Source: Chthoniobacterales bacterium
GTDB taxonomy: Bacteria; Verrucomicrobiota; Verrucomicrobiia; Chthoniobacterales; UBA6821
Length of the DNA stretch: 64,000 nucleotides
Direction: 5' to 3'
Assembly (NCBI GenBank): GCA_019747895.1
Contig: JAIEQF010000008.1
Span: forward strand, 13,501 to 77,500
The notes under the pieces are model-generated. The model was not told the origin of the DNA and did not search any database. It saw only the letters and a list, made by a program, of their open reading frames with translations. This document shows positions 1,484 to 63,291 of the stretch, piece after piece (within the stretch, counting starts at the first letter, position 1; every line of letters starts with the position of its first letter). Made by a program: the position numbers and the translations under genes.

Positions 1484-1524
1484 CTAGATCTGAAAAATGA
1501 CGGAGTCATTTTTAGATCTAGTTA
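1481..1524. repeat. Hairpin, AAAATGAC-N-GAGTCATTTT family (second copy at 9561-9600)
   Basis: TAACTAGATCTGAAAAATGAC-GGA-GTCATTTTTAGATCTAGTTA, beginning at the hom stop codon. Confidence 0.75.
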
Positions 1525-1680
1525 GTTCGCCGTTCGCAGTTGGCAGAAAATTTAAAATGAAACGCTTTATGAAAAAGAAAAATCTTTTTCACTCCGCCAT
1601 TATAAAATAGCATAAACTTTTCTGATGAAGCAACGAGCTGAACATAACTGCGAACCACCAACTGTGAACTGTCAACTGCC
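1524..1680. repeat. Inverted heptamer-arm cassette (AGTT(C/G)GC family)
   Basis: Left arm AGTTCGC CGTTCGC AGTTGGC at 1524-1546; right arm GCGAACC ACCAACT GTGAACT GTCAACT at 1646-1680. Confidence 0.75.
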
Positions 1681-2758
1681 ATCGCTTCGCAATGACACCG
1701 GCCTCATCAACCGCTATCGCGAATACCTTCCTGTAACAGCAAAAACGCCGATCATTTCTTTGAGCGAAGGTTCGACGCCGCTTCTTTTTTCACCCAAGCT
1801 GAGTCAGTTGACGGGAGGAGAAGTTTATCTCAAGTTTGAAGGATTAAATCCTACCGGTTCTTTCAAAGATCGTGGTATGACGATGGCCATTTCTAAAGCT
1901 GCTGAGCGTGGAGCAACGACCGTTCTCTGCGCTTCCACCGGCAATACATCAGCCTCTGCAGCTGCCTATGCCGCTCGTGCAGGAATGAAATGTGTTGTCA
2001 TTCTTCCGGCAGGACGCATTGCTACTGGAAAAATGGTTCAAGCTTACATTTATGGTGCTACAGTCATTGCTATCGAAGGAAACTTTGATGATGCCTTGCG
2101 CATTGTTCATGAGTTGGAAGCCACAGGGAAATTTGTTGTTGTTAATTCAACCAATCCCGATCGCATTGAAGGACAGAAGACGGCAGCCTTTGAAATCATC
2201 GAGGAGTTGGGGAGGGTGCCTGATTTGCACATTTTGCCGGTAGGCAATGCTGGAAACATCACCGCTTATTGGAAAGGGTATTGCGAATTTCAACAACGAG
2301 GTCACACTTCTCGATCACCAATCATGCTTGGAGTACAGGCTTCTGGGGCAGCTCCTTTATTTCATGGTGCACCGATGGACCAACCAGAAACGCTTGCAAC
2401 AGCGATTCGTATCGGCCGACCAGCAAGCTGGAATGGTGCTATGACAGCCATGAAAGAATCAGGAGGAGCTTTTGATATTGTTTCTGATGAAGAAATTTTA
2501 GCTGCGCAACAATGGCTTGCTAGCAACGAAGGAATTTTTGCTGAACCTGCCAGCGTGACGCCAGTTGCTGCATTATTAAAATATTTTTTACATCGTCAAT
2601 CTTCGCCTGAAGCTCTTCGTGAAAAATTAGCGACTAAAATGACGATAGTGCTAACGCTCACCGGCCATGGCCTCAAAGATCCAGATACTGCACGTCATGC
2701 GATCACCGATCCGATCGTGACAAAAGCGACGACGGAAGCGGTGCTAAGCAGGCTATAG
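1625..2758 (+). CDS. thrC: Threonine synthase (start uncertain; N-terminus overlaps a repeat arm)
   Basis: EGLNPTGSFKDRG PLP-lysine motif, CASTGNTSASAAAY, PVGNAGNI, TGHGLKDP. Confidence 0.95.
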   Translation: MKQRAEHNCEPPTVNCQLPSLRNDTGLINRYREYLPVTAKTPIISLSEGSTPLLFSPKLSQLTGGEVYLKFEGLNPTGSFKDRGMTMAISKAAERGATTVLCASTGNTSASAAAYAARAGMKCVVILPAGRIATGKMVQAYIYGATVIAIEGNFDDALRIVHELEATGKFVVVNSTNPDRIEGQKTAAFEIIEELGRVPDLHILPVGNAGNITAYWKGYCEFQQRGHTSRSPIMLGVQASGAAPLFHGAPMDQPETLATAIRIGRPASWNGAMTAMKESGGAFDIVSDEEILAAQQWLASNEGIFAEPASVTPVAALLKYFLHRQSSPEALREKLATKMTIVLTLTGHGLKDPDTARHAITDPIVTKATTEAVLSRL

Positions 2759-2762
2759 GAGA

Positions 2763-2955
2763 CAGGTTGCAGCATTTCAGGTTACAGGTTACAGCTTATA
2801 AAAGACTACAAAAACAGATAGCGGCTTTTTAGATTATCAAATAGCGATGAAACAAAAAGTGTCTCTTTGTTTTTAAATGATTTTAGCCTGTAAACTCCAA
2901 CCTACGACCTGTACCCTGAAATGCTGTACCCTGAAATGCTGTAATCTGTAACCTG
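2763..2955. repeat. Inverted heptamer-arm cassette (CAGGTT(A/G) family), no cargo gene
   Basis: Left CAGGTTGCAGCATTTCAGGTTACAGGTTACAG at 2763-2794; right ...CTGAAATGCTGTAATCTGTAACCTG at 2885-2955; AT-rich spacer. Confidence 0.8.
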
Positions 2956-2961
2956 TTTCTC

Positions 2962-4191
2962 ATGCCTCTCATCGTCCAAAAATATGGTGGAACTTCTGTT
3001 GCTAATCCCGAACGGATTAAGCACGTAGCTCGCCGTTTGTTGGCGACGCAGCGACAAGGAAATTCCGTGGTAGGAGTGGTCTCTGCCATGTCGGGTGTGA
3101 CGGATGGACTGATTCAATTGTCTAAACAAGTTTCAGATATACCAGTAAGTCGTGAGATCGATGTCTTGCTAGCCACGGGAGAACAAACAACCATGGCTCT
3201 AACCGCAATGGCGATTGAAGCTCTGGGAGGCAAGGCGGTCTCACTCACAGGAGCTCAAGCGGGAATTGTCACCAATGGATTGCACACGAAAGCAAAAATC
3301 CATCATATTTTACCTGAGCAAATCAAAAAACATTTAGAGCAAGGCAAAATTGTTATTGTCGCTGGCTTTCAAGGAGAGACCGAAGAGGGCGAAATCACAA
3401 CGTTAGGCCGTGGTGGCTCTGACCTCACTGCCATTGCTTTGGCCTCCGCACTTCAAGCTGATTCTTGTCAAATTTTAACGGATGTTGATGGTGTTTTCAG
3501 CTGCGATCCTCGCCTTGTTCCCAAAGCTCAAAAAATTGATATCATTTCCTATGATGAAATGTTGGAAATGGCAGGGAGTGGTTCTAAAGTGATGCAGTCA
3601 CGTTCTGTCGAGTTTGCAAAAAAATATAGTGTCAGTTTTGAAGTTTGTAATAGTTTTAACACACAACCAGGAACAATCGTGAAAGAAGAATCGCCATGTA
3701 TGGAACAAGTCGTTGTCCGCGGCATTAGCGTAGAACGAAATCAAGCAAAGGTCACTATCACGAATGTTCCCGATCGTCCTGGCTGCGCCGCTCGCATTTT
3801 TGCAACAGTCGCTGAAGCGCAATTGAATATTGACGTGATTGTTCAAGACGTCTCTGCCAATGGCACAACCAATATTTCTTTCACGCTCAATCGTGATGAC
3901 CTTGAAAAAGTCGGCACAATGCTCGATCGCGTTGCTCAAGAAATCGGCGCAGGGGAGGTGCGAAAAGAAGGCGGCATCGCCAAACTGAGTGTTGTTGGTA
4001 TCGGGATGAGAACTCACTCTGGTGTTGCCGCAAAACTTTTTGAAGCGCTAGCCCAAGGCGGCATCAATATTCAAATGATCTCCACCTCTGAAATTAAAAT
4101 TGCCGTCATCATTGATGAGGCTGATATTGTTTCGGCGGCTCAACTAGCCCACACGGCCTTTGGATTAGATCGGAAAGAGGAGAAGAAATAG
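2962..4191 (+). CDS. lysC: Aspartate kinase
   Basis: VQKYGGTSV, TTLGRGGSDLTA, TDVDGV, two C-terminal ACT domains ending ISTSEIKI. Confidence 0.96.
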   Translation: MPLIVQKYGGTSVANPERIKHVARRLLATQRQGNSVVGVVSAMSGVTDGLIQLSKQVSDIPVSREIDVLLATGEQTTMALTAMAIEALGGKAVSLTGAQAGIVTNGLHTKAKIHHILPEQIKKHLEQGKIVIVAGFQGETEEGEITTLGRGGSDLTAIALASALQADSCQILTDVDGVFSCDPRLVPKAQKIDIISYDEMLEMAGSGSKVMQSRSVEFAKKYSVSFEVCNSFNTQPGTIVKEESPCMEQVVVRGISVERNQAKVTITNVPDRPGCAARIFATVAEAQLNIDVIVQDVSANGTTNISFTLNRDDLEKVGTMLDRVAQEIGAGEVRKEGGIAKLSVVGIGMRTHSGVAAKLFEALAQGGINIQMISTSEIKIAVIIDEADIVSAAQLAHTAFGLDRKEEKK

Positions 4192-4279
4192 CCACAAAAG
4201 AACACAAAGATCACAAAAAAAAGAATTTCGCTTATTCTATCGTTTTTTCTTTTGTGCTCTTTGTGTTCTTTTGTGGCTA
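4189..4279. repeat. Inverted 9-mer-arm cassette (GCCACAAAG family)
   Basis: TAGCCACAAAAGAACACAAAGATCACAAAA paired with TTTTGTGCTCTTTGTGTTCTTTTGTGGCTA between convergent lysC and pyk. Confidence 0.85.
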
Positions 4280-4294
4280 TTTCTTTTTTTCGCT

Positions 4295-5707
4295 CTAAAT
4301 CTTCCGCAGCTGAATCAAATCAACATGCTCTTCGTTTTCAATCACGTCACTCATGACAATCAGGTGATTTCCTTTGTGGAGGAGTGATTTTTTGAGGAGG
4401 TGTGCTTCGATTTCTTTAATGACGGTTTCTGGACCATCATTCACAGGATGCACAATCGGATAAGTTCCCCAGTTGAGGATGAGTTGGCGTGCAACAACGT
4501 CCGAAGAGGTGATGGCAAACACAGGTGCCATCTCGGGACGAAGCTGGCTGGCGTAATCGACCATGAAGCCATGACGCGTAAAGACGGCAAGTCCTGAGTG
4601 CGGAAGTGAATTGGCAAGAGCTACACCGGAGCGTGCTGTTTTTTGACGAGCATTTTCAGATTCTGTCTGCTTCGCATAAGAAGCATGACCGCTACGTTCA
4701 ATACGACGAGCGACACGATCCATGACACGAACACATTCCACAGGATACTTTCCAACAGTTGTTTCACCGCTAAGCATGATAGCATCAGCTTGTTCAAAGA
4801 CAGCATTGGCTACGTCCGTAATTTCAGCGCGTGTCGGCACTGGGTTTTCAATCATCGACTCCAGCAAGTGAGTAGCCACAATCACGGGACGTCCTAGTTG
4901 GATCGCCTTCTTCATGATGCGACGTTGAATGATCGGAAGTTCTTCCATTGGGCATTCGATACCAAGGTCTCCACGTGCGATCATCACGGCATCCGTTGCT
5001 TCAATGATTTCGTTGATGAACCTCACGGCACATTGATCTTCAATTTTAGCAATAACGCGAGCGGTACCTTTATTTTCGGCAATGACACGCTTCATTTCAA
5101 GAATGTCACCTGCTTCCCGACAAAAGCTCAGAGCAATGAAATCTACGCCCAGTTCACATCCGACAGCCACATCAGCAATATCTTTTTCGGTGAGGGGCGG
5201 GAGATTGACACGTACGCCAGGAAGATTGATGTGACGACGAGATCCCAAAGGACCAGGAGTGAGGACCTCACAGCGAATACGATTATTTTTTTTACTGAGA
5301 ACTTTAAGATGCAGAACACCATTGTCCACGAGCATCACATCACCTTCAGAAATATCATCGATGAGACCGTCGTAGTTGACATTCACCGAATAAACTTCTT
5401 CACTCGCAGCACCACGCACGGTGAATTCTAGAATATCGCCAACATTGAGTTGAAGCTTGGAAGGAAGATCGCCAGTACGAACAGCAGGGCCTTGTGTGTC
5501 CATCAAGATGCCCACAATAAGACCTAACTCTTCAGCAATTTTACGAATAATAGGTACAACCCTACGCACGGAATCATGATTGGCATGGCTCATATTCAGA
5601 CGAAAAATATTCGTCCCAGCCAACATCAATTCACGAAGGCGCTCAGGAGTTTCGCTGGCAGGTCCAAGGGTGGCAATGATGCGGGTTTTACGTAGGGTAG
5701 GAGTCAT
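4295..5707 (-). CDS. pyk: Pyruvate kinase
   Basis: RKTRIIATLGPAS, RLNMSH, DTQGP, IAKIE, ARGDLGIE, MLSGET; start placed at MTPTLRK. Confidence 0.95.
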   Translation of the reverse strand: MTPTLRKTRIIATLGPASETPERLRELMLAGTNIFRLNMSHANHDSVRRVVPIIRKIAEELGLIVGILMDTQGPAVRTGDLPSKLQLNVGDILEFTVRGAASEEVYSVNVNYDGLIDDISEGDVMLVDNGVLHLKVLSKKNNRIRCEVLTPGPLGSRRHINLPGVRVNLPPLTEKDIADVAVGCELGVDFIALSFCREAGDILEMKRVIAENKGTARVIAKIEDQCAVRFINEIIEATDAVMIARGDLGIECPMEELPIIQRRIMKKAIQLGRPVIVATHLLESMIENPVPTRAEITDVANAVFEQADAIMLSGETTVGKYPVECVRVMDRVARRIERSGHASYAKQTESENARQKTARSGVALANSLPHSGLAVFTRHGFMVDYASQLRPEMAPVFAITSSDVVARQLILNWGTYPIVHPVNDGPETVIKEIEAHLLKKSLLHKGNHLIVMSDVIENEEHVDLIQLRKI

Positions 5708-5856
5708 ATGAGAAATGGTGAAGTTGAGGAGGTTGTTTCGCAAAAGTTGAAAGATTGAAAGAGGAATTTATAATTTGTGTCAGGCTTTCACAAAAGAAAG
5801 TGGTCAGAAAGAATGCCGTAGAAAGGAGAGGGAAGCAAGATTCTCTTTTTAATATG

Positions 5857-7026
5857 TCATAACCAGTTCCACCATGAATTCCAATATTCATCCCATGTTC
5901 TTGTATTTGATTCGGAAGTCCTTGAATTTTTAATAAGGTATGATATGGAAAATGGGGGTGGTTCAAGATCGTTTTCATGAATTTTTTTCATGTAGACTAA
6001 ACGAAAACTAACGTCACAAGGGCTCCCGCTAGGGCCCATGCAACTATGGGATGTATAATCCATGGTATCTCCCTCCCAGGGTAGGCCGCAGTAGCGTGAA
6101 TAACCTCTTAAGGTGACGAGTTGAGTTTCTCTAGAGAGCACAACCCCTGTTGTCCATTGCTTTGCATTGCCTCCCATGTCATAAGTCCCAAATGGTCCAG
6201 GTGACGCAGAAAAAATACCAACAGGAGTTAAATCAGGAAAACCGAAAGGACACATAGAATTGCGGGGAGTTATAGAGATAGAGCCCATGACTATTGTCGG
6301 TTTTTCGTGAAGGCAGTAATTAGCATTTTTTGTTGGAGAATCTTCTTGGTTGTCTTCTTCAGCGGCACTATTGCCTGGAGGATCATCACTCTGTGTTGAA
6401 TAGCTCCAATAATGAGTCTGATTATTTTTGTTGAAATAAGCAGCCTTGTACCATTCATCATCGGTAGGAAGACGCCATGTAGCATTGGATCGAAGAGAGA
6501 CACTTTTTTCTGTTATTAAATAACTTCCATCTTCCGTTGTTGAAGCATCTTGGTTTCCTGTTGGTTGGTGATTACTCATCCAATTGCAGAAGCGAATGGC
6601 ATTTAAAAAACTGATGATAGTGATGGGGTAGTTTTCTCTTCCTGGGACAATCTGGTACTCATATTCCTTTTTGGAATTGAGTGATCTTATGATGCAATGA
6701 ACACCAAGGTCTGTGTCCATTGCAATATTATAGATGCCATGAGGATCTTTTTTAGCAACTGCTTTGAGAAACTCGCAATATTGAGCCACGGTCACATCAA
6801 ATTTTCCAATTTGATATTCGTAATCAACCTTGCCGAGCCCTGTCCGAGTATCTGCTGGATTGCATGGAGCATCAACGGTAACGAGGTCTATCGTGATGGG
6901 TTGAGTACTCTGCGCAACAAGCCAAGCAGGATGAAGAAAAATTAACGAGAGCGTGACCAAAAGAAGACGGGGAAAAAAGAGAGAGCTATTATTTTTTTTC
7001 TGCTCTTTTGAAGGGGGTGGTATCAT
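5857..7026 (-). CDS. Secreted FGE-sulfatase (SUMF1/C-type-lectin-fold) domain protein
   Basis: Signal-peptide-like hydrophobic stretch; IGKFDVTVAQYCEFL, RLPTDDEWYKAAY, GTYDMGGN, SFRL motifs. Confidence 0.8.
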   Translation of the reverse strand: MIPPPSKEQKKNNSSLFFPRLLLVTLSLIFLHPAWLVAQSTQPITIDLVTVDAPCNPADTRTGLGKVDYEYQIGKFDVTVAQYCEFLKAVAKKDPHGIYNIAMDTDLGVHCIIRSLNSKKEYEYQIVPGRENYPITIISFLNAIRFCNWMSNHQPTGNQDASTTEDGSYLITEKSVSLRSNATWRLPTDDEWYKAAYFNKNNQTHYWSYSTQSDDPPGNSAAEEDNQEDSPTKNANYCLHEKPTIVMGSISITPRNSMCPFGFPDLTPVGIFSASPGPFGTYDMGGNAKQWTTGVVLSRETQLVTLRGYSRYCGLPWEGDTMDYTSHSCMGPSGSPCDVSFRLVYMKKIHENDLEPPPFSISYLIKNSRTSESNTRTWDEYWNSWWNWL

Positions 7027-7184
7027 GCTACGAGCAATGCATCATAGACGTAGTTGGTTCGTTAAGTAACTCAATTTTTAATAATATTCTAATAATATGG
7101 AGCCTTGTGTTTTTAATTATTGAAAGAGGAGACAATTTAATTAGCATCGAGCCTCTCAGAATTAGAATTTCTCCCCTTTGACTC

Positions 7185-9560
7185 GTGAAGAGCTATCTTT
7201 TATTACTCCTACTCCTGTTTTGGTTAAGCACACAGGAAGCAATTTCTGAGTCATTCGATGAGCCATCAAGCCCAATGATGATGCTTCCTCGTGGAGAGTG
7301 CAGGATGATTAATGATGGGCGTCTTGATCAAGAGCGTGGAAGAGCTCCCTATCTTGCTCGAGAAGCCAACCGAAACAGTCTCACTAGACCTGATGGAGAT
7401 TGGGTTCAACGCCGTGATGCTTCAGATTGTATGGCAGAGGAAAGTGATGAGGAGAGTGATGATGATCCTTCTGATGAAGGAGAAAATAATTTGAATGATT
7501 GGTCTGGCAGTGGGCCTTCTAATTTTTTTATAAATGGGAGCATCATGGATGCTACTAGCGGACATATTTCCAATCGTAAGCCTTTCGCTATCAAAGCATC
7601 TGTAGAGCGCGCGCCTGTACCAGGAGTTGGGCCTCATGAAAAAGCTTCAGTAGGCTCAATGACTTTAGCAGCAGCTGCAGGGACCTCTCCACCAGGTTTG
7701 TTTGCTGGGCGTCGCATTGCTGTGAGTCCACAAGATCTCATGAGGCAAGCACTGGTTGACTCACTAATAACTCATCCTCGCCCTCTCGGTGAAGCCTCGG
7801 GAGGTCTTCATCTCGATCCCGAATCACTGAAAGTCGTAGAAGGTATCGATAAACTTCATGCATACCAGCGTCAACATGCAGTTGTTTCTCAAGTTAGGAC
7901 TGAGCAAAAGACGGCATTAGCAAATGAGGAAGGGCGACGAATAGCATCAGCAATCAGCAATGAATCTAGAGGTTTTCAAGAAATAGCAAGGTTACAGAAC
8001 GAAGTTAATCAACAAGCAGTACGAGAGGCTCAAGAAATAATGGGAGAGCAGGGAATAGTAGGTATAGATGTTAACGAAAGGGGACGTCAGTTATTTAGAG
8101 CACGTCTAACAGATGATCAACGCCTATTTATTCAACACCATCCACACCAACCAGCTGTGAGAGGTGCATTTGGACGGAGAGGATATGATGATCTTGTGGG
8201 GCGGCCTATCCCCAGCAATCAACTTCTAGCAGCATCAGAAGCAGTAAAGCGCTTAAAAAGTAATCAGAATATTACGATTCCTGGTGGCGACTTGGCACTC
8301 ACTGCTGAAGACGCCATCGCTCTCAAAGCTCCAGAAGAAGCGGATCTAGAACCAGCTCCACAATCATTTTTTGGAAGAATGCTCTCGATCAATGCGGCGG
8401 GAAGAACGGAGGAAGAGAAAGCAGCGAATCAATCATTAACCCATCGTTTTTTTGATGTGCTCAACACGCTACTTCAACCCGATGTGATGAAAGTAGTCTG
8501 TCCTCCAAAAGAACAAGAACGCTTGATGGAAAGCGGAGCTCCGTTACGGCTTGAAAGAGCCGCTCAGATTCTGAGCGATGCACGCGCGGTTGCACTTAAA
8601 ATTAGAAATGCCCAAGCGGCTCAACCTAATGTCGATCCTTTAACAACGCGTGCTATCGTCATCGCCAACTATGCCAAAACAATTGCTGCTCGTGCATCAA
8701 TGGTTCATCGTGCTGCAGGAGATCACGGGGAACTTTTTCTGAATGCTGCTGGTCGTTCTCTCGTTGCTGCGGGCAGTGCTGCGAGTTTTGCTGGAAAGGC
8801 GACGGCTCTTGCCTCTGTAACGGTTGGTAGTCTCGTGGCACCGGCTTATCTGGCTCCTCTGGTGCCACTACTTCACAATTCATTATTGTACTATACGGTG
8901 AGGGGTGTCTCTTTGGCAGTTGGTGGTTATTTAGGGAATCGTCGTTCTAACGATATCATGAGAGAAGCTCATGAGCATGGTGATAGCCTTCAGAGTAGTG
9001 CGGCCCAGTGGCTTGCTCACCATGCCCTGGATAGCAGTGTGACCAGTTTAGGGGTTTTTGGTGCAGCTGTAGTAGTATCAGAGATAATAGGGGAGAGCGT
9101 ATCAGAGGTGAGAGGGATGGTAGGTACTGCTAATCTCGATGAGGTAAGAGACGTGCTCTTAGGCGGGGCCTTCCTGAGCTTGCTCGCAGAAGGGGCCGTA
9201 CTTGTTCCTGCAATGTTTACTGCAGACTACCTCGGTTCTACTGCTGCCTCTTTTGCACGTGCTCCACTTTCTCGCTTGGTCACAACGCTTGAAGTGGCCC
9301 GTGAGGCTGTTGCCGCGTTCCAGAGAGCAAGTGTGGCACGCACAGAGAATGCTGAAGCACAGACGAACGAGCGACGAGCACTTGCCACTGCCGTGAATGT
9401 TGCAACGCGTGCCGTGGAAAATTCAACTCCAAAAAATCGAGCAGCCAACGAGCAGGCGCTCGCTCAAGTTCAGGAGGCGGCTGCAGAAGCCAATCGAAGG
9501 CCGCTCGTCATCGATCCCTCTAAGAAGATGTTGCCGCCACCATGGCGACGAGGAATTTAA
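7185..9560 (+). CDS. Hypothetical secreted/membrane protein, 791 aa
   Basis: Long ORF with N-terminal signal peptide, acidic tract, Ala-rich hydrophobic segments in the C-terminal half; no family recognised. Confidence 0.75.
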   Translation: MKSYLLLLLLLFWLSTQEAISESFDEPSSPMMMLPRGECRMINDGRLDQERGRAPYLAREANRNSLTRPDGDWVQRRDASDCMAEESDEESDDDPSDEGENNLNDWSGSGPSNFFINGSIMDATSGHISNRKPFAIKASVERAPVPGVGPHEKASVGSMTLAAAAGTSPPGLFAGRRIAVSPQDLMRQALVDSLITHPRPLGEASGGLHLDPESLKVVEGIDKLHAYQRQHAVVSQVRTEQKTALANEEGRRIASAISNESRGFQEIARLQNEVNQQAVREAQEIMGEQGIVGIDVNERGRQLFRARLTDDQRLFIQHHPHQPAVRGAFGRRGYDDLVGRPIPSNQLLAASEAVKRLKSNQNITIPGGDLALTAEDAIALKAPEEADLEPAPQSFFGRMLSINAAGRTEEEKAANQSLTHRFFDVLNTLLQPDVMKVVCPPKEQERLMESGAPLRLERAAQILSDARAVALKIRNAQAAQPNVDPLTTRAIVIANYAKTIAARASMVHRAAGDHGELFLNAAGRSLVAAGSAASFAGKATALASVTVGSLVAPAYLAPLVPLLHNSLLYYTVRGVSLAVGGYLGNRRSNDIMREAHEHGDSLQSSAAQWLAHHALDSSVTSLGVFGAAVVVSEIIGESVSEVRGMVGTANLDEVRDVLLGGAFLSLLAEGAVLVPAMFTADYLGSTAASFARAPLSRLVTTLEVAREAVAAFQRASVARTENAEAQTNERRALATAVNVATRAVENSTPKNRAANEQALAQVQEAAAEANRRPLVIDPSKKMLPPPWRRGI

Positions 9561-9749
9561 AGTCCGTTCAGAAAATGACAGAGTCATTTTTGAACAGACT
9601 CAGGCTACAGGTTGCAGACTACAGGCTAGAGTTACTTGAAGAAAAAATCACGATTTTTTGAATCCGCTCTTTGTCATGGGAGATCATTTTTATAAGTGAT
9701 CAACTTTTAAAATTTTCTACGAACTGCGAACTATCAACTACGAACTGGC
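9561..9749. repeat. Hairpin followed by two heptamer arms from different families
   Basis: AGTCCGTTCAGAAAATGACAGAGTCATTTTTGAACAGACT at 9561-9600; CAGGCTACAGGTTGCAGACTACAGG at 9601-9625; CGAACTGCGAACTATCAACTACGAACTGGC at 9720-9749. Confidence 0.7.
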
Positions 9750-9766
9750 GTTGTGCAACAACGCCA

Positions 9767-11014
9767 TTACCGATCACACTCACCAAAGACAAAGTCGAGG
9801 CTTCCGATAATAGCAACGACATCGGAGACCATGCAGCCTGGCAACATTTTTTGAAGGATGCTGCAGTTCATGAACGAAGGACCGCGGATCTTCAGGCGGT
9901 AAGGGGATCCGCCGCCTTTGCTGTGAATGTAGAAGCCGAGTTCACCTTTCGGATTTTCGGCGCCGAAATAAACTTCACCCGGAGGCGCATCAACTCCTTG
10001 AGTGCTAACGATGAAATGGTGAATCAGTTCCTCCATTTTTTCTAAGACGGCTTCTTTTTGTGGAGGAATATTTTTGGGATCAACGACATTAATCGGACCG
10101 GAAGGGAGGGAGTTGATAGCTTGTTCTAAAATGCGAACGCTCTGACGCATTTCTTCCATGCGAACCAAATAACGATCGTAAACATCACCAACGCTGCCAA
10201 CGGGAATTTCAAAATCATAACGAGCGTAGTCGAGATAGGGATTGGCGCGGCGAAGATCATGTGCGATGCCAGAACCACGAAGGTTAGGCCCTGTTAAAGC
10301 GTAACTGATCGCAGTTTCTTGAGAAATGATTCCTAGGTCACGAGTCCGATCGACAAAAATACGATTCCGTGTGAGGAGATTGCTGACCTCTTCAAGAACA
10401 GGTTTGAAGTTTCTTAAAAATTCTTTGAGCTGTGCCGCAAAGCCATCAGGAAGATCGCGAACTTGTCCTCCAATGCGCGTGTAGCTGGTTGTGAAGCGGG
10501 CGCCCGTCAGGAGTTCACAGAGATCATAAATTTTTTCCCGCTGAGCAAAAGTAAACATGAAAACGGAGATAGCTCCAATATCCATGCTAGCAGCTCCCAG
10601 ACCAAGTAAATGGGCGGAAATGCGGGCGAGCTCACAACAGATGACGCGGATGGTTTGACCGCGAGGAGGAATTTCCCAGCCCATCAGTTTTTCTACCGCG
10701 AGAGCATAGGCAACGTTGTTGGCCAGGGGAGCTAAGTAATCAAGTCGATCCGTGTACGGAACGAATTGATTGTACTGCATGTTCTCAGCAATTTTTTCAT
10801 CGCCGCGATGAAGGTAGCCAATGTGCGTTGTGACATTGGTGATGATCTCTCCATCGAGTTCCAACTCGAGGCGAAGAACGCCGTGAGTCGCTGGATGGGA
10901 AGGCCCCATGTTAAGGGTCATTTTTTCACCCAACATATCGTGACTTTCTTCTAACCCTTGAAGCGTGCGGGCAAGAGTGTCAGGTTGTTCAAAAACTAAG
11001 GACGTCGTACTCAT
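9767..11014 (-). CDS. nuoD: NADH-quinone oxidoreductase subunit D
   Basis: NMGPSHPATHGVLRL, GYLHRG, DRLDYL, ENPKGELG, C-terminal GECDR. Confidence 0.95.
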   Translation of the reverse strand: MSTTSLVFEQPDTLARTLQGLEESHDMLGEKMTLNMGPSHPATHGVLRLELELDGEIITNVTTHIGYLHRGDEKIAENMQYNQFVPYTDRLDYLAPLANNVAYALAVEKLMGWEIPPRGQTIRVICCELARISAHLLGLGAASMDIGAISVFMFTFAQREKIYDLCELLTGARFTTSYTRIGGQVRDLPDGFAAQLKEFLRNFKPVLEEVSNLLTRNRIFVDRTRDLGIISQETAISYALTGPNLRGSGIAHDLRRANPYLDYARYDFEIPVGSVGDVYDRYLVRMEEMRQSVRILEQAINSLPSGPINVVDPKNIPPQKEAVLEKMEELIHHFIVSTQGVDAPPGEVYFGAENPKGELGFYIHSKGGGSPYRLKIRGPSFMNCSILQKMLPGCMVSDVVAIIGSLDFVFGECDR

Positions 11015-11142
11015 AGAAAGATAATAAAAGGGCATTCACAGGATAGAAGAGAAAAGAAAATTTGTCAGCTCTATATCGAAGATTTCTTTTCAAGAAGCTG
11101 TGTTGTTCTTGCTGTAACCTGCAACCTGTTGTCTGTCGAGAG

Positions 11143-11215
11143 TGGGGGCACCTGGATTCGAACCAGGAACCAACCAGTTATGAGCCGGCTGCTCTAACCG
11201 TTGAGCTATGCCCCC
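11143..11215 (-). tRNA. tRNA with CAT anticodon, most likely tRNA-Ile2 (lysidine type); CCA not encoded
   Basis: GGGGGCA/TGCCCCC acceptor stem, D-arm TAGCTCAACGGTTAGAGC, anticodon arm GCCGG-CTCATAA-CTGGT, T-loop GGTTCGAATCC. Confidence 0.92.
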
Positions 11216-11232
11216 AAAAAGGAAAAGAAAAA

Positions 11233-11313
11233 AATAGCCATAAAAGCACGCAAAGAACACAAAAAAAGAAAGAAGTTTTTTCTTTGTGATCTTTGCGTGC
11301 TTTTGTGGCTATT
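11233..11313. repeat. Inverted 9-mer-arm cassette (GCCACAAAG family)
   Basis: AATAGCCATAAAAGCACGCAAAGAACACAAA paired with TTTGTGATCTTTGCGTGCTTTTGTGGCTATT. Confidence 0.85.
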
Positions 11314-11321
11314 AAAATTTT

Positions 11322-11648
11322 CTAATAATTTTTTCCAATCGCCATCGTCATTGATTCTTCTAGCTCTTCCTCTTCTTCAAGGCTTGAGAGGGGTGCAAAT
11401 CGGTCCGAGCGAAATCCGAGCTCTTCTGCCGAAGCTTCATCCATGTAGGGATCGAGATCATTGGTTATCTCTTCTAACAGCAGACGAAAGCTTATTCCTG
11501 GGTCAATCGCGCCGGTCTTGGTTCTTCCAATAGAGCATTCACGAACAGTATAGATATCTCCTTTCTTTGGGAGCTCTCGGTACAATTTGCGATGCAGTGG
11601 CTCAAACGTATCGTTAATGCAAACAACTTTTTCTCCGATATCAAACAT
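11322..11648 (-). CDS. Small acidic hypothetical protein (possible SH3-like N-terminus)
   Basis: 108-aa ORF with ATG start MFDIGEKVVCIND, protein-like composition and an acidic tail. Confidence 0.75.
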   Translation of the reverse strand: MFDIGEKVVCINDTFEPLHRKLYRELPKKGDIYTVRECSIGRTKTGAIDPGISFRLLLEEITNDLDPYMDEASAEELGFRSDRFAPLSSLEEEEELEESMTMAIGKNY

Positions 11649-11751
11649 AGAATTAGATTATTGGTTACAGCTTAAAGACTACAGGAAAAAATATTCTAAT
11701 TTTTAAGAATAAGGTTTTTCAAAGTTCAAGGGTCACAACAAACAATGAGTT

Positions 11752-15023: not shown

Positions 15024-15025
15024 TT

Positions 15026-54057: not shown

Positions 54058-54194
54058 AGTTTATAGGTTTATGAGTTTATAGGTTTATGAAACTAGTGAA
54101 GTCGCTATCAAAGTGTCACATAAATTTTGCAATCGAAGCAATCTAACTGAACTAATTAAATAAATCATCCTGTTTTATTCTAAACCTATAAACC
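54058..54194. repeat. Inverted 8-mer-arm cassette (GTTTATAG family)
   Basis: GTTTATAG GTTTATGA GTTTATAG GTTTATG paired with CTAAAC CTATAAACC. Confidence 0.65.
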
Positions 54195-54301: not shown

Positions 54302-54721
54302 TTGGCCTCATTAGGTCTCGGTGCCTCAGCTAGCACGATCAACACGGCCGCGGCTATTGCAAAATATGGAGCAGGTACTTTAATCGCTATTGTTGCTATG
54401 GCAGTGGTTCCAGAATTGATTGGGCATGGCATTGAAGGACATGCTAGAGCTCACTTTGCTGAAGAAGGGGGCCAGAAAATGTTAGACAGCGTATTTCAAA
54501 CAGCTGAAAGACCTACTATTGCTTCTCTTCAAGCTAAACAAACAAGTTGTATTGTCAAAGGCATCAAATATGTTGGAAATAGAATCAGCAGCTTCGTGAG
54601 CGATAAAGTTAAAGTTCTTGATGAAAGCTGGGAAAATTTCCAAATCGGAATCAGAAATGGAGGAGTTGCAGATATAGTCAAATTACTTAGAACTTACAAG
54701 CAATTGACTTGTCCTTTTTAG
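54302..54721 (+). pseudogene. Probable fragment of a decayed orphan gene
   Basis: Protein-like ORF with only a TTG start; further short open fragments to about 55000. Confidence 0.4.
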
Positions 54722-55089
54722 GAAAAGACTGCGTTCTCATCCCGTCACGTTATCGTTTGGATAGCGCTCGGTCTTCGGCCTGGCCTTTTCTAAAAATTCC
54801 TGCGTTCTTCCCTGTAATTTCTAAGTAATTTGACTATAATGATGAAATGGGAAGCATTACTACACCTTCAAGTGATTCAAGAAGACAAAGCCTCAACAGG
54901 AGCTCATATTATCAAGTTTCTCAAGTCGATGATCTAAATCCATCTGGACGTGATCTTCACACTTTAGGCAGAACAAGGAGGAGGAAGTTCTGTTGACAAC
55001 AGGCTCTTGGGAAAGGAAGTAAAGTCTCTTGAAGCCAAGAGGCTTTGGTAACTTTGATTAACTTCAACTTTAATTTTATTATATGCAAC

Positions 55090-55118
55090 CGTCATTCCCG
55101 CGAACGCGGGAACCCAGG
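55090..55118. repeat. Solo CGTC-tagged REP-like palindrome
   Basis: CGTCATTCCCGCGAACGCGGGAACCCAGG. Confidence 0.75.
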
Positions 55119-55213
55119 AGATGGTCTGTACAAAAAGCGAGAACAAGCAATCGGAAAAAATCTCTCAAAACACTTCTTCCTTCAGCCCTTAGCCTTCAGT
55201 CTTCAGCCTCTCC

Positions 55214-56174: not shown

Positions 56175-56319
56175 AAAACTGTTTCAGAAAATCGCTGATG
56201 GGGATGAAGAGCAAGGAGTGACGGCGCACAGCGACTGAGTGTATAGTTAATACTCGATGGCGCGAGCACCGGCGCGACACAGCTCTTCGCCTCATCAGTA
56301 GATTTTATGAGGCAGTTTT
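56175..56319 (-). mobile_element. Second RPE-1-like palindromic element, overlapping the acnA 3' end
   Basis: Imperfect TIR AAAACTGTTTCAGAAAATC / GATTTTATGAGGCAGTTTT; core homologous to 1049-1105. Confidence 0.82.
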
Positions 56320-59100
56320 CATCAGTTGGCGGAGGATGAACGGCAGAATCCCGCCATGTTTATAGTAATCAATCTCAATCGGTGTATCGATCCGTACTTT
56401 CACAGAAATCTCCTCAGGACGCCCATCTTTCCTAGTGATGCGCAGCTTCAAATCTTGGCGAGGCTCTAATTTTTCAGAAAGGCCCAGGACATCGTAGCTT
56501 TCGGTCCCATCGAGTTTGAGTGACTCTGCATTCGTTCCTTCCATGAATTGCAGCGGCAGCACGCCCATGCCAACAAGGTTGGAACGATGGATGCGCTCGT
56601 AACTGCTGGCCACGACAGCACGCACTCCGAGGAGTTGTGTTCCTTTAGCAGCCCAGTCCCGGCTGCTTCCAGTTCCATATTCTTGGCCAGCGATGATGAT
56701 GAGGGGAGTTTTTTCTTGAGCGTAACGTTGAGCAGCGTCGAAGATGCTCATGCGCTCGCCATCAGGTTGATGAACTGTTTCGCCCCCTTCAACGCCAGGA
56801 AGCATGAGATTTTTAATTCGCACATTGGCAAACGTCCCACGCGTCATCACGCGATCATTGCCGCGACGACTTCCGTAGCTATTGAAATCTTCTGACTTCA
56901 CTCCTTGCTCGATCAAGTAAACACCAGCAGGAGATTGCTTCTTAATCGCACCGGCAGGAGAGATGTGATCTGTCGTAACCGAGTCTCCAAAGATGGCTAA
57001 TGTACGAGCACCTTCGATGCTTTTAATTGGTGAGGGTTTCGATTCAAAGTTTTCGAAGAAGGGAGGCTCTTGAATATAAGTACTCTTGTCATTCCAGGAA
57101 TAAGTCTCTCCCGTTGACGAGGGGATCTCATTCCATTTTGGATTTTGTCCTGCAAAGTCGGAGTAATATTTTAGGAACGTTTCTGGTGTTAACGCATTCT
57201 TCAAAGCCGTCCGAATTTCCGCCAGACTTGGCCAGATGTCTTTGAGGAAAGTTGGGTTCTTGTTTTTGTCAAAGCCAATGGGGTCTTTCGAGAAATCAAT
57301 ATTTACTCGGCCAGCCAATGCGAAGGCGACGACAAGTGGTGGTGACATCAGGAAATTGGCCTTGATGGCAGGATGGATGCGCGCTTCAAAATTCCGATTA
57401 CCCGAGAGGACAGCTGCTGTCACGAGATTATGATCTTGAATGGCTTTTTCAATTTCTGGTTGCAACGGACCTGAGTTGCCAATGCAGGTGGTGCAACCAT
57501 AAGCCACCGTTTGAAAACCAAGCTTGTCGAGGTAGGGCTGCAATCCTGTTTTTTCAAGATAGCTTGTCACGACGCGGGAACCAGGTGCCAGCGAGGTTTT
57601 GACTGAGCTGTCGATTGTCAAGCCATGCTCAATGGCCTTCTTTGCTAGCAAGCCAGCAGCGACCATCACGGAAGGATTGCTGGTGTTGGTGCAACTCGTG
57701 ATCGCTGCGATCAAGACTGCGCCATGACCAAGAGCTGATCCTTTTTCATGAAATGGGCTTTCTGGCATCTGCTCAAGGTGATCGGGTGTGGGGCGATCGT
57801 GAACCATCTCTTGTTCATCTGTTGACAATTTGTGATGAGAGGCAATGTGAGCTTTGACATCGAGATGATTTTTATCAATGCCATAGCCGCCTTCCGCAGC
57901 ACTTTTTTCGAGCAATGTTGAAAAGGTCTTCTGCACTTCGGACAAGTTAATCCGATCTTGTGGACGCTTTGGCCCAGCAATGCTTGGCTGAATGCTGCCG
58001 AGATCAAGCTCCAGATTGACGCTATAGTCGAGCTGACCTTTTTGTGGCATACCAAAGAGACCTTGCGCTTTAAAATAATTTTCAAAAGCAGCACATTGCT
58101 CTGCTGTTCTTCCAGTCGCTTTCATGTAAGCGATCGATTCCTCATCGACGGGAAAAATGGCAATCGTTGCTCCATATTCCGGAGCCATGTTCGCAATCGT
58201 ACCGCGATCGGGAAGAGAAAGTTTGGCGGCACCTTCACCATAAAATTCCACAAATTTCCCAACGACTTTAGCCGCGCGTAACATCTGCGTGACATGAAGC
58301 GCCAAGTCTGTTGCGGTAACGCCTTCGGAAAGTTCGCCGCTCAAATGCACGCCGACCACCTCTGGAGTCAGGAAATAAACGGGTTGTCCAAGCATGCCAG
58401 CCTCAGCTTCGATGCCACCAACGCCCCAGCCGACAATGCCCAAGCCATTGATCATCGTCGTGTGGGAGTCGGTCCCAACGAGCGTGTCGGGGTAGTAGAT
58501 TTTCCCTTGAGCTGTCTCTGCGTGGAGCACACCTTGCGCGAGGCATTCCAAATTGACTTGATGCACAATGCCGATGCCAGGAGGGACGATCCCAAAAGTT
58601 TTGAAAGCTTGTTGTCCCCACTTGAGAAATTCATAACGCTCACGGTTGCGTTGAAACTCCATTTCTAAATTGAGGTTCATCGCATCAGCCCGTCCGTAAT
58701 AATCAACTTGTACGGAGTGATCGACGACGAGGTCGACAGGCACAAGCGGTTCTACAGAACTTGGCTTTCCACCCAGGCGCTTGATCGCGCTGCGCATCGC
58801 GGCAAGATCAACGAGGAGAGGGACCCCAGTAAAATCTTGAAGCACGATCCGAGCAACGACGAAGGGAATTTCTTCTTCAACTGGTTTTTTAGCATTCCAA
58901 TTGGCAAGACGCTTCACGTCCTCCTGCGTGATTTTATGCCCATCACAATTGCGCAAGACTGATTCCAAAACAACACGAATACTAAAAGGGAGCCTAGAGA
59001 TCGGCCCCACGCCTTGCTTCTCGAGCTCTGGCAGGGAATAAAAGAATCCTTTTTGAGAGGAGGTGATTTCGAAATCGCGAAGAACGTTGAAGGGATGCAT
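56305..59100 (-). CDS. acnA: Aconitate hydratase A
   Basis: [60 protein letters not shown]. Confidence 0.97.
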
Positions 59101-59149
59101 GTTAAAGTTGAAGTTGAAAGTTAAAGGTGAAGAAAGCAGAAGAAAAAAT

Positions 59150-59233
59150 TAGCCACAAAGAACCCAAAGAAACCAAAGAATAAAAACAGCTTTTATGATT
59201 TTTTTTGATCTCTTTGTGTTCTTTGTGGCCATT
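59150..59233. repeat. Inverted 9-mer-arm cassette (GCCACAAAG family)
   Basis: TAGCCACAAAGAACCCAAAGAAACCAAAG paired with TTTGATCTCTTTGTGTTCTTTGTGGCCATT. Confidence 0.8.
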
Positions 59234-59236
59234 CTC

Positions 59237-59740
59237 TTATTTCAGCGAAGCAAGAGCAGCTTTGATTTTTTCGAAGTTAGGAAGTTGTTTCGGATTGTCG
59301 CTCGACTCGGCATATTGAATGACGCCAGCGCGATCAATCACAAACGCAGAGCGCTTTGGCACGCCCTTCATTCCAAGGCCTATCTCTGGTAGAAAACTTT
59401 CGTAAGCGACGCCGTAAGCCTCTGCTACGTGATGTTCGTAATCGCTCAGCAACGTGACGTTGATTTTTTCTTTGGCAGCCCAGGCCTCTTGCGCAAAAGG
59501 ATTGTCGCCGCTAATGCCAAAAACCGTGGCGTTGAGAGCCTCATAGGCATTGAGTTCTGAGGTGACAGCACACATCTCTTCCGTGCAGACACCAGTAAAG
59601 GCCATTGGAAAAAAGAGGAGTACGACGGGACCTTTTTGGAGCGCCTCGCTCAACGTGAATTTTTTAGGACCTTCCGCTGTTTTGGAAGAGAGGGTGAAGT
59701 CAGGAGCAAGTTGAGCGACTGCGAGATTTTTTTGGGACAT
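59237..59740 (-). CDS. Peroxiredoxin (AhpC/TSA family)
   Basis: APDFTL, FFPMAFTGVCTEEMC, GISGD, LLSD, RSAFVID. Confidence 0.9.
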   Translation of the reverse strand: MSQKNLAVAQLAPDFTLSSKTAEGPKKFTLSEALQKGPVVLLFFPMAFTGVCTEEMCAVTSELNAYEALNATVFGISGDNPFAQEAWAAKEKINVTLLSDYEHHVAEAYGVAYESFLPEIGLGMKGVPKRSAFVIDRAGVIQYAESSDNPKQLPNFEKIKAALASLK

Positions 59741-61654: not shown

Positions 61655-61697
61655 TTTCGCGCCACTTTCGCGCCACTTTCGCGCCACTTTCGCGCCA
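61655..61697. repeat. Perfect 11-bp tandem repeat (TTTCGCGCCAC), about 3.9 copies
   Basis: Read directly, starting 7 nt after the Fic stop codon. Confidence 0.9.
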
Positions 61698-61836
61698 ACA
61701 TTGAGAGCGTCGTAACTTTTCTTAGTAAAGATGGAAAAGAAAAGATAACCTTTGATTATTTCTCTTATCTTTTTAGTAAACTAATATACTGTATCTTTAA
61801 TTACAAATAACGTTTCAAAAAACAACAAACCCTTTG

Positions 61837-62268
61837 ATGCCAATGAGCGCTTGGATAAAAATATTTAGCAAAACTTATTCTGGAATAACAAAAGAATCTG
61901 TCTGGCGAATCTGGACCGATGTCAATCATTGGCCTCAGTGGCATGGAGATCTGGAGAGCTGCACGATGGAAGGGGCTTTTCAGGTTGGAAATTATTTTAT
62001 GCTCAAGCCAAAAGGAATGAAGGAAGTGAAAATCATGCTCGTTGACATTGAGGAAGAGAGCTCTTTCACGGACTGCACAACATTTTTAGGAGCCACCATG
62101 CACGACACTCATGCCATGGAAGAAACGCCTGAGGGATTGCGCATCACCAACACGCTCGTGGTGACCGGCCCTCTCAAATGGCTTTGGATCAAACTTGTTG
62201 CTCAGCATATCGCAGACACTATTGAGGAAGAGACTGAGGCCCTTGTTAAATTGGCTAGGCAGGTATGA
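61837..62268 (+). CDS. SRPBCC (polyketide cyclase-like) family protein
   Basis: VWRIWTDVNHWPQWH START-fold pattern; overlaps the MarR gene. Confidence 0.8.
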   Translation: MPMSAWIKIFSKTYSGITKESVWRIWTDVNHWPQWHGDLESCTMEGAFQVGNYFMLKPKGMKEVKIMLVDIEEESSFTDCTTFLGATMHDTHAMEETPEGLRITNTLVVTGPLKWLWIKLVAQHIADTIEEETEALVKLARQV

Positions 62269-62717
62269 ATACAAAATATCCCTTTGGCTTTAAAATTCCG
62301 GAAGCAAGTCCTGGCTTCTTGCTCTGGCAAACAACGATGACGTGGCAACGTCTCATTAAAAAGGCACTGGAGCCTCACGACATTTCCCATGCTCAGTTTG
62401 TCATCATGGCTACGCTCATATGGTTTGAATTACAAAAAAAAAGCCCCACCCAAGTCCTCATCGTGAACTGGACCAAGCTCGATAAAATGACCGTTTCCAA
62501 GTCCATCAAAAAACTAGTCACTTCCAAACTAGTCAACCGCATCGAACATCAAACCGATACTCGTGCCAAAAATGTTTCGTTAACAGCAAAGGGGAGGGCG
62601 CTCATTCACCAACTCATTCCACTGGTTGAACAAGTCGATGCTGAGTTTTTTGGAAAAGGAATTTCTAACAAAGATCAGTCGCTACTCTTGCAGATATTGA
62701 AAAAATTGCTTGCCTAA
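62265..62717 (+). CDS. MarR family transcriptional regulator
   Basis: SPGFLLWQ, DKMTVSKSIKKL, DTRAKNVSLTAKG. Confidence 0.9.
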   Translation: MNTKYPFGFKIPEASPGFLLWQTTMTWQRLIKKALEPHDISHAQFVIMATLIWFELQKKSPTQVLIVNWTKLDKMTVSKSIKKLVTSKLVNRIEHQTDTRAKNVSLTAKGRALIHQLIPLVEQVDAEFFGKGISNKDQSLLLQILKKLLA

Positions 62718-63178
62718 TTTGCAACCTCAAAAATCGCTTCGATCTCCACAGCCGCTCCCAGAGGGAGTGAGGAGACGCCGACTGCGGCACGAGCGTGTTT
62801 TCCGGCATCACCCAGGACAGATACGATCAAGTTAGAAGCTCCATTGATAATCTTGGGATGAGCCGTGAACTCAGGAGTCGCATTGACGAAGCCAGTGATT
62901 TTGAGGCAGCGTTTGATTTTATCGAGAGAACCCAATGCTGCTTTTGCTTGCGCTAAGATGTTGAGCATACAGTGGCGCGCGGCCTCGATTCCTTCTTCCT
63001 CAGAGACAGCAGCTCCAAGTTGCCCAGCAACTTTTACCGTGCCCTTTTCGTAGGGAAGTTGGCCGGAAACAAAAAGCAACGATCCAGAAATCGTGTAGGG
63101 AACGTAGTTGGCGAGGGGTGTGGAGACAGTGGGGAGCTCGAGTTGGAGTGTGGTTAGTTTGTTTTCGATGGAGTTCAT
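62714..63178 (-). CDS. RidA/YjgF family protein
   Basis: ANYVPY, VSGQLP, HPKIINGAS, HARAAVGVSSLPLGAAVEIE. Confidence 0.92.
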   Translation of the reverse strand: MNSIENKLTTLQLELPTVSTPLANYVPYTISGSLLFVSGQLPYEKGTVKVAGQLGAAVSEEEGIEAARHCMLNILAQAKAALGSLDKIKRCLKITGFVNATPEFTAHPKIINGASNLIVSVLGDAGKHARAAVGVSSLPLGAAVEIEAIFEVAN

Positions 63179-63291
63179 GAGAAGGGTTTAGGAGTTTAGA
63201 GGTTTTAAAAAATGTTGTATTCATTTTGATTCTAAGAAAAGAAATTTCCTTTGATTTCTTTGTGGCCATTCTCTTCTTTGCCTTTGTGCGT

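Follow-up and report, generated by a model that had tools for sequence, protein, structure and literature searches.

What occupies the junctions between genes in a 64,000-nt stretch of a Chthoniobacterales genome (GenBank assembly GCA_019747895.1, contig JAIEQF010000008.1, positions 13,501–77,500 of the forward strand)? Many gaps in this stretch, hereafter called the window, contain a cassette of one build, namely a left arm of short degenerate tandem units, an AT-rich spacer and a right arm that is the reverse complement of the left one. The first-pass annotation of the window, made from the letters alone, described a window-wide system of such cassettes and took them for the empty or decayed form of an inserting element able to carry cargo, or for a device acting at the RNA level. 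Based on the results below, we consider it probable that the cassettes are miniatures, lacking an open reading frame (ORF), of a class of selfish hairpins to which the 23S rRNA intervening sequences (IVSs) belong.

Inverted pairs of tandem arrays across the genome

The host genome (2.06 Mb in 55 contigs, 44% G+C, 96% complete), in which the window is positions 13501–77500 of contig C50, contains 1421 tandem arrays found by TRF (Tandem Repeats Finder). Mostly non-coding arrays number 705, versus 69 after a dinucleotide shuffle within each coding or non-coding segment; gene positions and non-coding DNA were both defined by a crude map of longest ORFs. Periods 7 (318 non-coding arrays vs. 11 after shuffling) and 9 (158 vs. 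10) dominate. An inverted partner within 400 nt (match score of at least 12) was found for 329 of the 632 non-coding arrays of period 6–10, while a direct partner was found for 10 and an inverted partner in shuffled flanks for 1. A comparison with shuffled DNA had been suggested in the first-pass annotation as the check on its claim, and the pairs stand far above that expectation. The cassettes occur throughout the window and genome-wide, and every family and coordinate listed earlier is present, including the nine solo arms (9601, 9720, 11111, 11663, 16813, 44926, 52135, 55180 and 63249).

Merging gave 248 inverted pairs with a bimodal spacer length (~20–60 nt and ~80–140 nt). The 209 pairs with a spacer of at most 300 nt are treated here as cassettes; they have a median length of 139 nt and cover 28,127 bases, or 12.6% of the DNA that is non-coding on the crude ORF map. 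Elements that make up about one eighth of the non-coding DNA break assemblies, lengthen ORF calls into their arms and block intergenic alignment between close species. As in tandem heptamer arrays, units of about 7 nt stand head to tail between genes, in several copies and at several sites of the genome. Three cassettes gave folding z-scores of −6.5, −10.9 and −11.7 relative to shuffles, including −6.45 for the cassette at 2757–2956 and −10.9 for that at 30186–30392.

The cassettes are dispersed-repeat families rather than local accidents. Their long spacers have 31% G+C; for 65 of 136, the genome contains a relative at another site (75–96% identity), always within the same or a related arm family. 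The miniatures measure 60–250 nt, with a core of ~25 or ~110 nt. Elements of the GGGATGGAA family end sharply (ATTCACAGG...CCTGTGAAT), with three 9-mers in each arm around a conserved core of ~95 nt. The family has 44 matches in the own genome and 88 in the closest congener (G012); of the 13 genus genomes searched (own included), 6 gave no match. Contigs at least 99% similar to the window were found in four water-metagenome runs, all from one study. They are short, most of their joints connect different repeat copies, and only their loose ends were used, as marks of element boundaries; such ends lie exactly at 14854/5 and 15023–6, around the GGGATGGAA-family element of the window. The AAGGCTG family contains a conserved core of ~78 nt with 3–6 heptamers per side and fuzzy outer ends.

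Arm pairing also appears to be partly maintained. The first-pass annotation had pointed to pair-specific variants present on both arms, and 9-mer arms indeed fit their own partner better than the partners of other copies (mean score of 24.7 vs. 17.2; 51 pairs, pre-selected at a score of at least 12). In an alignment of 19 copies of the GGGATGGAA family, 92.8% of cells were paired and 11 were doubly changed, compared with 6.3 expected, a count reached in 11 of 500 shuffles, which suggests modest covariation. Stop codons in all frames, considered as a reason for heptamer arms, were discarded on inspection (they fail for the ACAGGTT and 9-mer arms). Integron attC sites were discarded too, since no core-site pattern is present in the arms and the neighbouring genes have housekeeping roles in operons (no further check was made).

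Small genes between the arms and turnover among congeners

Inverted pairs with arms 380–500 nt apart enclose one small ORF. Among 20 enclosed ORFs scanned from 32 pairs, three matched PF05635 (23S_rRNA_IVP; TIGR02436, "four helix bundle protein") and one matched PF13366 (PDDEXK_3; TIGR04256, "GxxExxY protein"). The genome contains six PF05635 genes and one full PF13366 gene; a PF05635 protein of this genome matches the Xanthomonas structure PDB 2gsc at E = 1e-20. Inverted tandem arms enclose the PF13366 gene and all but one of the six PF05635 genes (five genes, with Pfam E-values of 1e-30 to 1e-36), with total spans of 420–491 nt. The arms around these ORFs are 20–47 nt long and consist of 3–6 copies of a 6–10-nt unit, the number varying between copies. 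They belong to the AGTTCGC, AAGGCTG, GAGTTT, ACAGGTT, ACTCGCT-type and 9-mer families, several of which recur as miniatures in the window. In the RNA fold of a full element, the arms form the terminal stem, which is kept in the centroid fold.

The association extends to the genus and the phylum. In the genus, 20 of 26 PF05635/PF13366 genes had a flank score of at least 13 (for one gene, the flank did not suffice for judgement), compared with 5 of 144 small-ORF controls at a score of at least 12, and all three GxxExxY genes had 9-mer arms. In the phylum, PF05635 was present in 85 and PF13366 in 59 of 121 genomes. The PF05635 flank test, covering 26 genomes of 36–72% G+C, was passed by 19 of 26 testable genes (3 of 29 loci had short flanks) and by none of 51 shifted controls; the arms consisted of unrelated units, mostly of period 7. 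For PF13366, 11 of 14 genes had gene-spanning arms of one type, ACCAC/ACCGC followed by CACGAAG, CACGGAG or CGCAGAG units. The remark in the first-pass annotation that similar repeats flank four-helix-bundle and GxxExxY genes thus holds here. Where the two neighbouring genes are co-directional, the ORF has the same strand as they do in 13 of 14 genus cases and 9 of 12 phylum cases, among which relatives are not independent.

A larger cargo is not supported. The ratio of inverted to direct same-unit pairs is 14:2 at 300–600 nt and then 5:9 (600–1000 nt), 14:17 (1000–1500 nt), 25:25 (1500–2500 nt) and 31:41 (2500–4000 nt). Beyond 600 nt, inverted pairs are therefore no more common than direct ones, and the long enclosed ORFs of the same scan encode housekeeping enzymes, so the idea of gene-sized cargo was abandoned. 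The same applies to the pair that had been proposed at 17782–18702; it spans a 266-aa gene (17869–18669) at a distance where the two orientations are equally common, and the gene is not supported as cargo.

Junctions of the window were compared with those of congeners; the host genus comprises at least 13 species-level genomes of 1.2–3.4 Mb, in an order with genomes of 0.9–6.1 Mb. G012 has a LysC protein 98% identical to that of the host and genes ~83–95% identical at the DNA level. The thrC/lysC junction, which holds an ACAGGTT cassette in the own genome, contains an AAGGCTG cassette in G012 and is empty (22–27 nt) in G001 and G020, and the 9-mer cassette of the glgX/pgl junction is matched in G012 by a GGGATGGAA-family element. 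Alignment of such junctions had been proposed earlier in search of absent, empty and filled alleles, and it returned empty and filled states as well as elements of another family. In G012 or another genome, the livM/livH junction measures 268 nt (46 nt in the own genome), the hyp152/sigma junction 298 nt (own 31 nt) and the pgi/ROK junction 75 nt (own 227 nt); livM/livH was different in each of the five genomes compared. Three own 9-mer hairpins have only one arm in G012, and the acn/AhpC site of G012 contains other elements together with a right 9-mer arm alone. Nested and chimeric arrangements were common at the compared junctions. As judged from these alignments, cassette turnover is shown to be faster than the gene divergence of ~10%. 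This natural variety of alleles makes mobility and RNA processing directly testable.

Paired arms were also counted in samples of 17–130 kb per genome. Their density per 100 kb was ~16–17 in the own genome, 22 in G002, 15 in G012, 11 in G003, 10 in G005 and 9.3 in G007, and fell to 3.8 in G011, 1.7 in G010 and 1.0 in each of G008 and G001. The last three genomes, with 1.0–1.7 paired arms per 100 kb, have no PF05635 gene and are the poorest of the congeners, while the seven genomes with at least one such gene (at least 17 kb sampled) have 3.8–22. That the three congeners without the gene are poorest in paired arms speaks for a role of the encoded proteins. In addition, the same build occurs in other families of the order at 54–66% G+C, including GTTACAG arms.

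It should be noted that three gene blocks of the window are absent from otherwise colinear G012 contigs. The block at 5744–9766 consists of an FGE-sulfatase-like gene and a 791-aa orphan, that at 11692–14140 is a 792-aa orphan, and that at 17869–18669 is the 266-aa gene named above, a candidate M90-like peptidase, which is absent from both G012 and G008. Solo arms lie at or close to the break points of the G012-absent blocks. Also, the stretch 19931–20189, which includes a GTTGAAAG hairpin, is 94–99% identical to contig C83 of G012, compared with ~90% for the genes on either side of it; the stretch is missing from the colinear junction in G012.

A proposed origin and its rivals

The ORF-bearing elements resemble the 23S IVS of Coxiella, a selfish element of 428 nt that contains an S23p ORF and is closed by a terminal stem of 28 bp (Warrier et al. 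2016, PMC4990558). Its arm contains two or three tandem GACAGAT heptamers, the number differing by strain, and RNase III cuts at the first repeat; similar ORF-bearing IVSs are cited there for Leptospira, Xanthomonas and Brucella (PMC4990558). The elements found here share with it a length of ~430–490 nt, a long terminal inverted-repeat stem, a variable number of tandem heptamers in the arm and a loop with one PF05635/TIGR02436 ORF that runs in the sense direction of the host transcript. They differ in that they lie between protein-coding genes and not in helix 25 or 45 of 23S rRNA; no 23S rRNA gene was found in the host assembly, so an rRNA copy of the element could escape notice. They further differ in having many arm families per genome, a second class with a GxxExxY gene, and ORF-less miniatures that outnumber the full forms by ~30:1 (209 vs. 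7). On this reading, IVS-type elements occur here mainly outside rRNA, in two classes and with abundant ORF-less miniatures. A literature search, which did not cover supplementary files or database family notes, returned no paper linking tandem-arm hairpins to these gene families beyond the single Coxiella IVS.

We therefore suggest the following scheme, in which the cassettes are probably miniatures of such elements. A full element of ~420–490 nt consists of two inverted arms, each of 3–6 degenerate 6–10-nt tandem units, around one small gene. In class 1, the gene encodes a GxxExxY protein with a PD-(D/E)XK fold, and the arms are ~9-mers of the type (T)AGCCAC-AAAG-AAC. In class 2, it encodes a four-helix-bundle (S23p/IVP) protein, and the arms are 6–8-mers of almost any sequence. 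Once transcribed, the 20–45-bp stem may serve as an RNase III substrate, by analogy with the Coxiella IVS. The insert would thereby be cut out of the operon transcript, or cut it apart, and so be tolerated between genes. RNA processing of the cassettes is plausible because RNase III is known to excise the Coxiella IVS (PMC4990558); the host genome contains a gene for RNase III. Movement of the elements may depend on an action of the small proteins at the arms, which would also mobilise the miniatures in trans, and the arm units may vary by slippage while pairing is kept.

A number of observations weigh against this scheme. To our knowledge, no transposition chemistry has been described for either small protein. 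The cores of the ORF-less cassettes have no homology, at the DNA or protein level, to the ORF-bearing elements of the own genome, and no ORF-bearing partner of the GGGATGGAA family was found among the elements seen. Unlike the ORFs, the cores of the eight largest spacer clusters run with and against transcription equally often (18 cases each). Neither a target-site duplication in three family alignments, including those of GGGATGGAA and AAGGCTG, nor a defined outer end in the heptamer families was seen. Clear arms are missing in 6 of 26 genus genes and 7 of 26 phylum genes. The association between gene presence and density comes from 10 related genomes, and the samples of G009 (18 kb) and G004 (6 kb), which carry a single gene apiece, contained no paired arms. 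The earlier interpretation of the cassettes as an empty or decayed form of a cargo-bearing element is supported by the shared arm families around small ORFs, the empty, filled and swapped junctions and the dispersed families. Neither the word "decayed" nor an origin of the miniatures by deletion from full elements is supported, because their cores have no detectable homology to the ORF-bearing elements.

The alternative that survives best, though we regard it as unlikely, is that the hairpins are pre-existing target sites, spread by another route, into whose loops small mobile genes home. The unrelated cores of ORF-less and ORF-bearing inserts would suit it, as would the frequent nesting and chimeras and the fact that no two four-helix-bundle genes of the own genome share an arm family. 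On the other hand, the arms of GxxExxY genes are of a single type throughout the phylum, as would be expected of ends that travel with the gene, the total spans are narrow (420–491 nt), and the Coxiella IVS carries its own stem into 23S rRNA (PMC4990558).

Could the cassettes be ordinary miniature transposable elements with inverted repeats (MITEs), or REPINs, that owe their movement to a conventional transposase encoded in the genome, either RAYT-like Y1 or a DDE enzyme of the IS630/IS4 type? They are dispersed inverted-repeat families, and the genome has two Y1_Tnp, four or five IS630-type (DDE_3) and three DDE_Tnp_1 genes. This origin appears improbable, since rve, TnpB-type and RVT_1 (reverse transcriptase) genes had no match in this 96% complete genome and the Y1 genes (own and six loci of relatives) are flanked by terminal inverted repeats (TIRs) of their own, 26–58 nt long and starting GGGGTC, and not by tandem arms. 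Y1 counts do not follow density either (G007, no gene and 9.3 per 100 kb; G008, one gene and 1.0), and the best NCBIfam RAYT score was 42.7 bits, below the cut-off of 80; a REPIN/RAYT system was rejected on these grounds. The IS630 TIR is TATAGTCAAATTACTTAG, with a separate MITE at 54673–54838. An IS-derived MITE was rejected, as the IS630 TIRs are different and no direct duplication was seen at the ends in the three family alignments. [quoted passage not shown] The cassettes share with them two inverted ends around a spacer and a dispersed, non-autonomous, intergenic occurrence, but their ends are untagged tandem units and the Y1 genes have other TIRs.

Equally doubtful is a host-made origin, in which the cassettes would be regulatory hairpins (terminators, mRNA stabilisers or attenuators) created on site through slippage and retained by selection. 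By gap type, 146 of the 209 cassettes are co-directional, 37 divergent and 11 convergent, and 15 fall outside the intergenic map; per kb of gap, this corresponds to 1.03, 0.70 and 0.29 cassettes, respectively. Those in co-directional gaps fill them, beginning at a median of 2–19 nt past the stop codon and ending ~11 nt before the next start in the main heptamer families. Such closeness to start and stop codons would suit a regulatory role, as would the partly maintained pairing and the A- and T-rich tails on 9-mer hairpins. Against it stand the family-specific cores dispersed at 75–95% identity, the near absence of conservation at orthologous junctions in a congener with ~90% identical genes, the cassettes in divergent gaps and the depletion of convergent ones. 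Intrinsic terminators in particular were rejected: none of 13 terminator-like sites predicted in window positions 1–20000 lies inside a cassette, and cassette loops are mostly 20–140 nt, compared with the 3–8 nt of the intrinsic-terminator criterion.

Other repeat systems share parts of this build. Elhai is said to have described, in 2008, short tandemly repeated repetitive (STRR) heptamers of cyanobacteria and small dispersed repeats of Nostoc. Like the cassettes, STRRs are short tandem heptamers of several families between genes. The present host is not cyanobacterial by gene content (no photosynthesis gene is among the window genes), and inverted pairing of arms is the rule here. Drosophila foldback elements have long inverted ends of short tandem repeats with an optional coding middle; being eukaryotic, kilobase-sized and served by another transposase, they offer an analogy only. 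In Xanthomonas, GGGAATC heptamer arrays form 70–75 inverted pairs per genome, most of them transcribed, and ~90% are intergenic, mostly between co-directional genes (Rehm et al. 2015, PMC4692102). These arrays resemble the cassettes in being intergenic tandem heptamers in inverted pairs, mostly in co-directional gaps. They have a single G-rich unit, read as a quadruplex former, and the sections of that report used here make no link to IVS genes; 83% of their sites are conserved between two species, in contrast to the fast turnover here (PMC4692102).

A wider reading, which we offer as a tentative one and rate as rather less than even, is that bacterial intergenic hairpins of inverted tandem repeats form one ancient and widespread mobile class of intervening sequences. 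The gene of the autonomous forms would be that of a four-helix-bundle protein or of a GxxExxY protein with a nuclease fold. Movement would not require a fixed sequence at the ends; its mechanism would instead recognise the architecture of the arms in class 2 and a short motif within them in class 1, and removal by RNase III would let them survive in operons and rRNA. The Xanthomonas GGGAATC pairs may belong here, and perhaps also the cyanobacterial STRRs. If this were true, the elements would act as protein-excised "introns" of polycistronic RNA. The origin and mobility of rRNA IVSs and the function of the S23p protein have been open questions since the 1990s (PMC4990558), and heptamer arrays have so far been catalogued without explanation (PMC4692102). 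In the present genomes the two appear within one system, which offers copies by the hundred, proteins of two classes and alleles that are naturally empty, filled or swapped.

Elements of the window and other repeats

The tandem-arm elements of the window are as follows.

1524–1680: ORF-less cassette with AGTTCGC heptamer arms (1524–1546 and 1659–1678) in the hom/thrC gap
2757–2956: ORF-less cassette with ACAGGTT heptamer arms (2762–2798 and 2907–2956) and an AT-rich core of 117–136 nt, filling the thrC/lysC gap
4183–4285: short 9-mer (TAGCCACAAAG...) hairpin between convergent lysC and pyk, arms of 43 nt, 93% complementary
9601–9632 and 9717–9746: two solo arms of different families, CAGGCTA-type and CTACGAA-type
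11107–11135: solo CTGTAACCTG arm adjoining a tRNA gene, also in G012
11233–11313: short 9-mer hairpin with the pair-specific variant GCACGCAAAG; left arm only in G012
11663–11690: solo GGTTACAG arm, also in G012
14846–15032: GGGATGGAA-family element between livG and livF, ends at ~14855 and 15025 (ATTCACAGG...CCTGTGAAT)
15830–15895: short 9-mer hairpin between livM and livG
16813–16840: solo AGTTCGT/AGTTGGC arm at the livM/livH junction
17775–17808: CAGGTTG/A arm, with an inverted match at 18676–18700 past the 266-aa gene
20031–20115: short hairpin with GTTGARRG 8-mer arms (20031–20054 and 20092–20115)
20223–20283: short hairpin with GTTTATAG 8-mer arms
24540–24588: short hairpin with GTTGAAAC 8-mer arms
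24647–24796: ORF-less cassette with AGTAATG heptamer arms (24647–24671 and 24774–24796) and a 104-nt core in the divergent DAGK/AsmA gap
30186–30392: long 9-mer cassette with 41-nt arms and a 125-nt core between glgX and pgl-rpiB
38940–39002: short 9-mer hairpin with the pair-specific variant GAACGCAAAG; an unrelated hairpin at the site in G012
44926–44955: solo CCTGTAACCTG arm
52135–52170: solo 9-mer arm (TAGCCACAAAGAGCACAAAG...)
54058–54194: ORF-less cassette with GTTTATAG 8-mer arms and a 109-nt core
55179–55209: solo CCTTCAG arm
59101–59132 and 59140–59241: solo GTTGAA array and short 9-mer hairpin in the acn/AhpC gap
63249–63275: solo 9-mer right arm

All window cassettes lack an ORF, and none has an S23p ORF in its loop; the earlier statement that the window contains no mobilising enzyme is correct. 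The cassette at 1524–1680 has copies in G012 at 78–83% identity, and AGTTCGC arms also flank a four-helix-bundle gene on contig C43 of the own genome; its right arm lies inside the thrC ORF call, which is probably over-extended. The 9-mer CACAAAG hairpins (4183–4285, 11233–11313, 15830–15895, 30186–30392, 38940–39002 and 59140–59241) have arms of 22–43 nt that are 78–95% complementary. In the first of them, the stop codons of lysC and pyk both lie within the arms, which are near-identical to those around the GxxExxY gene on contig C49. The spacer of the cassette at 24647–24796 has relatives within the largest spacer cluster.

The gene content of the window is ordinary: hom-thrC-lysC, pyk, nuoD, the liv ABC operon, an ECF sigma factor gene, kdtA, glgX, pentose-phosphate genes, metK-ahcY and acn. 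An Rfam scan of the window returned two tRNAs and nothing else. A single ORF at 30415–31563 fuses a 6-phosphogluconolactonase domain with an RpiB ribose-5-phosphate isomerase domain.

Several other repeats lie beside the cassettes. A palindromic element of ~145 nt is inserted in frame in hom (homoserine dehydrogenase) at 1004–1156, is absent from hom of G012, and occurs again at ~56175–56322. The genome contains 113 copies, and in 47 cases the whole copy falls within a long ORF. Among the 32 copies of full length, 23 lie in ORFs and use one frame per orientation (11 + 11, with one exception), which yields two recurrent peptides. In this respect, it resembles the Rickettsia palindromic elements that insert in coding genes.

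CGTC-tagged REP palindromes (CGTCATTCC...GGAATGACG) form an inverted dimer at 36548–36711 around a 106-nt AT-rich spacer. Such a dimer belongs to a known class (PMC3733652), and its overall build is that of the tandem-arm cassettes. Single units are present at ~33067–33097 and 55089–55118, and other junctions of G012 are filled by the same family.

The element at 54673–54838 is a MITE of the IS630-type element with the TIR TATAGTCAAATTACTTAG; further copies are nested in an IS630 copy (contig C29, 9835–10935) and stand, in C18, beside a Y1 gene that is broken. Another TIR family, with the start GGGGTCGGTTCCGTTATTTCG, is found at C47, 1–1170, and at C52, 54911–56010 and 83016–84301; it encloses a Y1 transposase-like gene of 321 aa and also two genes of ~290–300 aa that by eye are candidates for Rpn/PD-(D/E)XK recombination-promoting nuclease-like proteins. 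This family forms empty short hairpins in C13, C28, C34 and C53, some with tandem duplications of the terminal unit. The Y1 genes of relatives have different TIRs with the same GGGGTC start.

A small hairpin of the TCTGAAAAATGAC.GAGTCATTTTTAGA type lies directly past the stop codons at 1484–1521 and 9561–9601, in each case followed by a tandem arm. Finally, a perfect 11-mer tandem repeat (TTTCGCGCCAC, 3.9 copies) without an inverted partner is located at 61655–61697, just past a Fic-domain gene.

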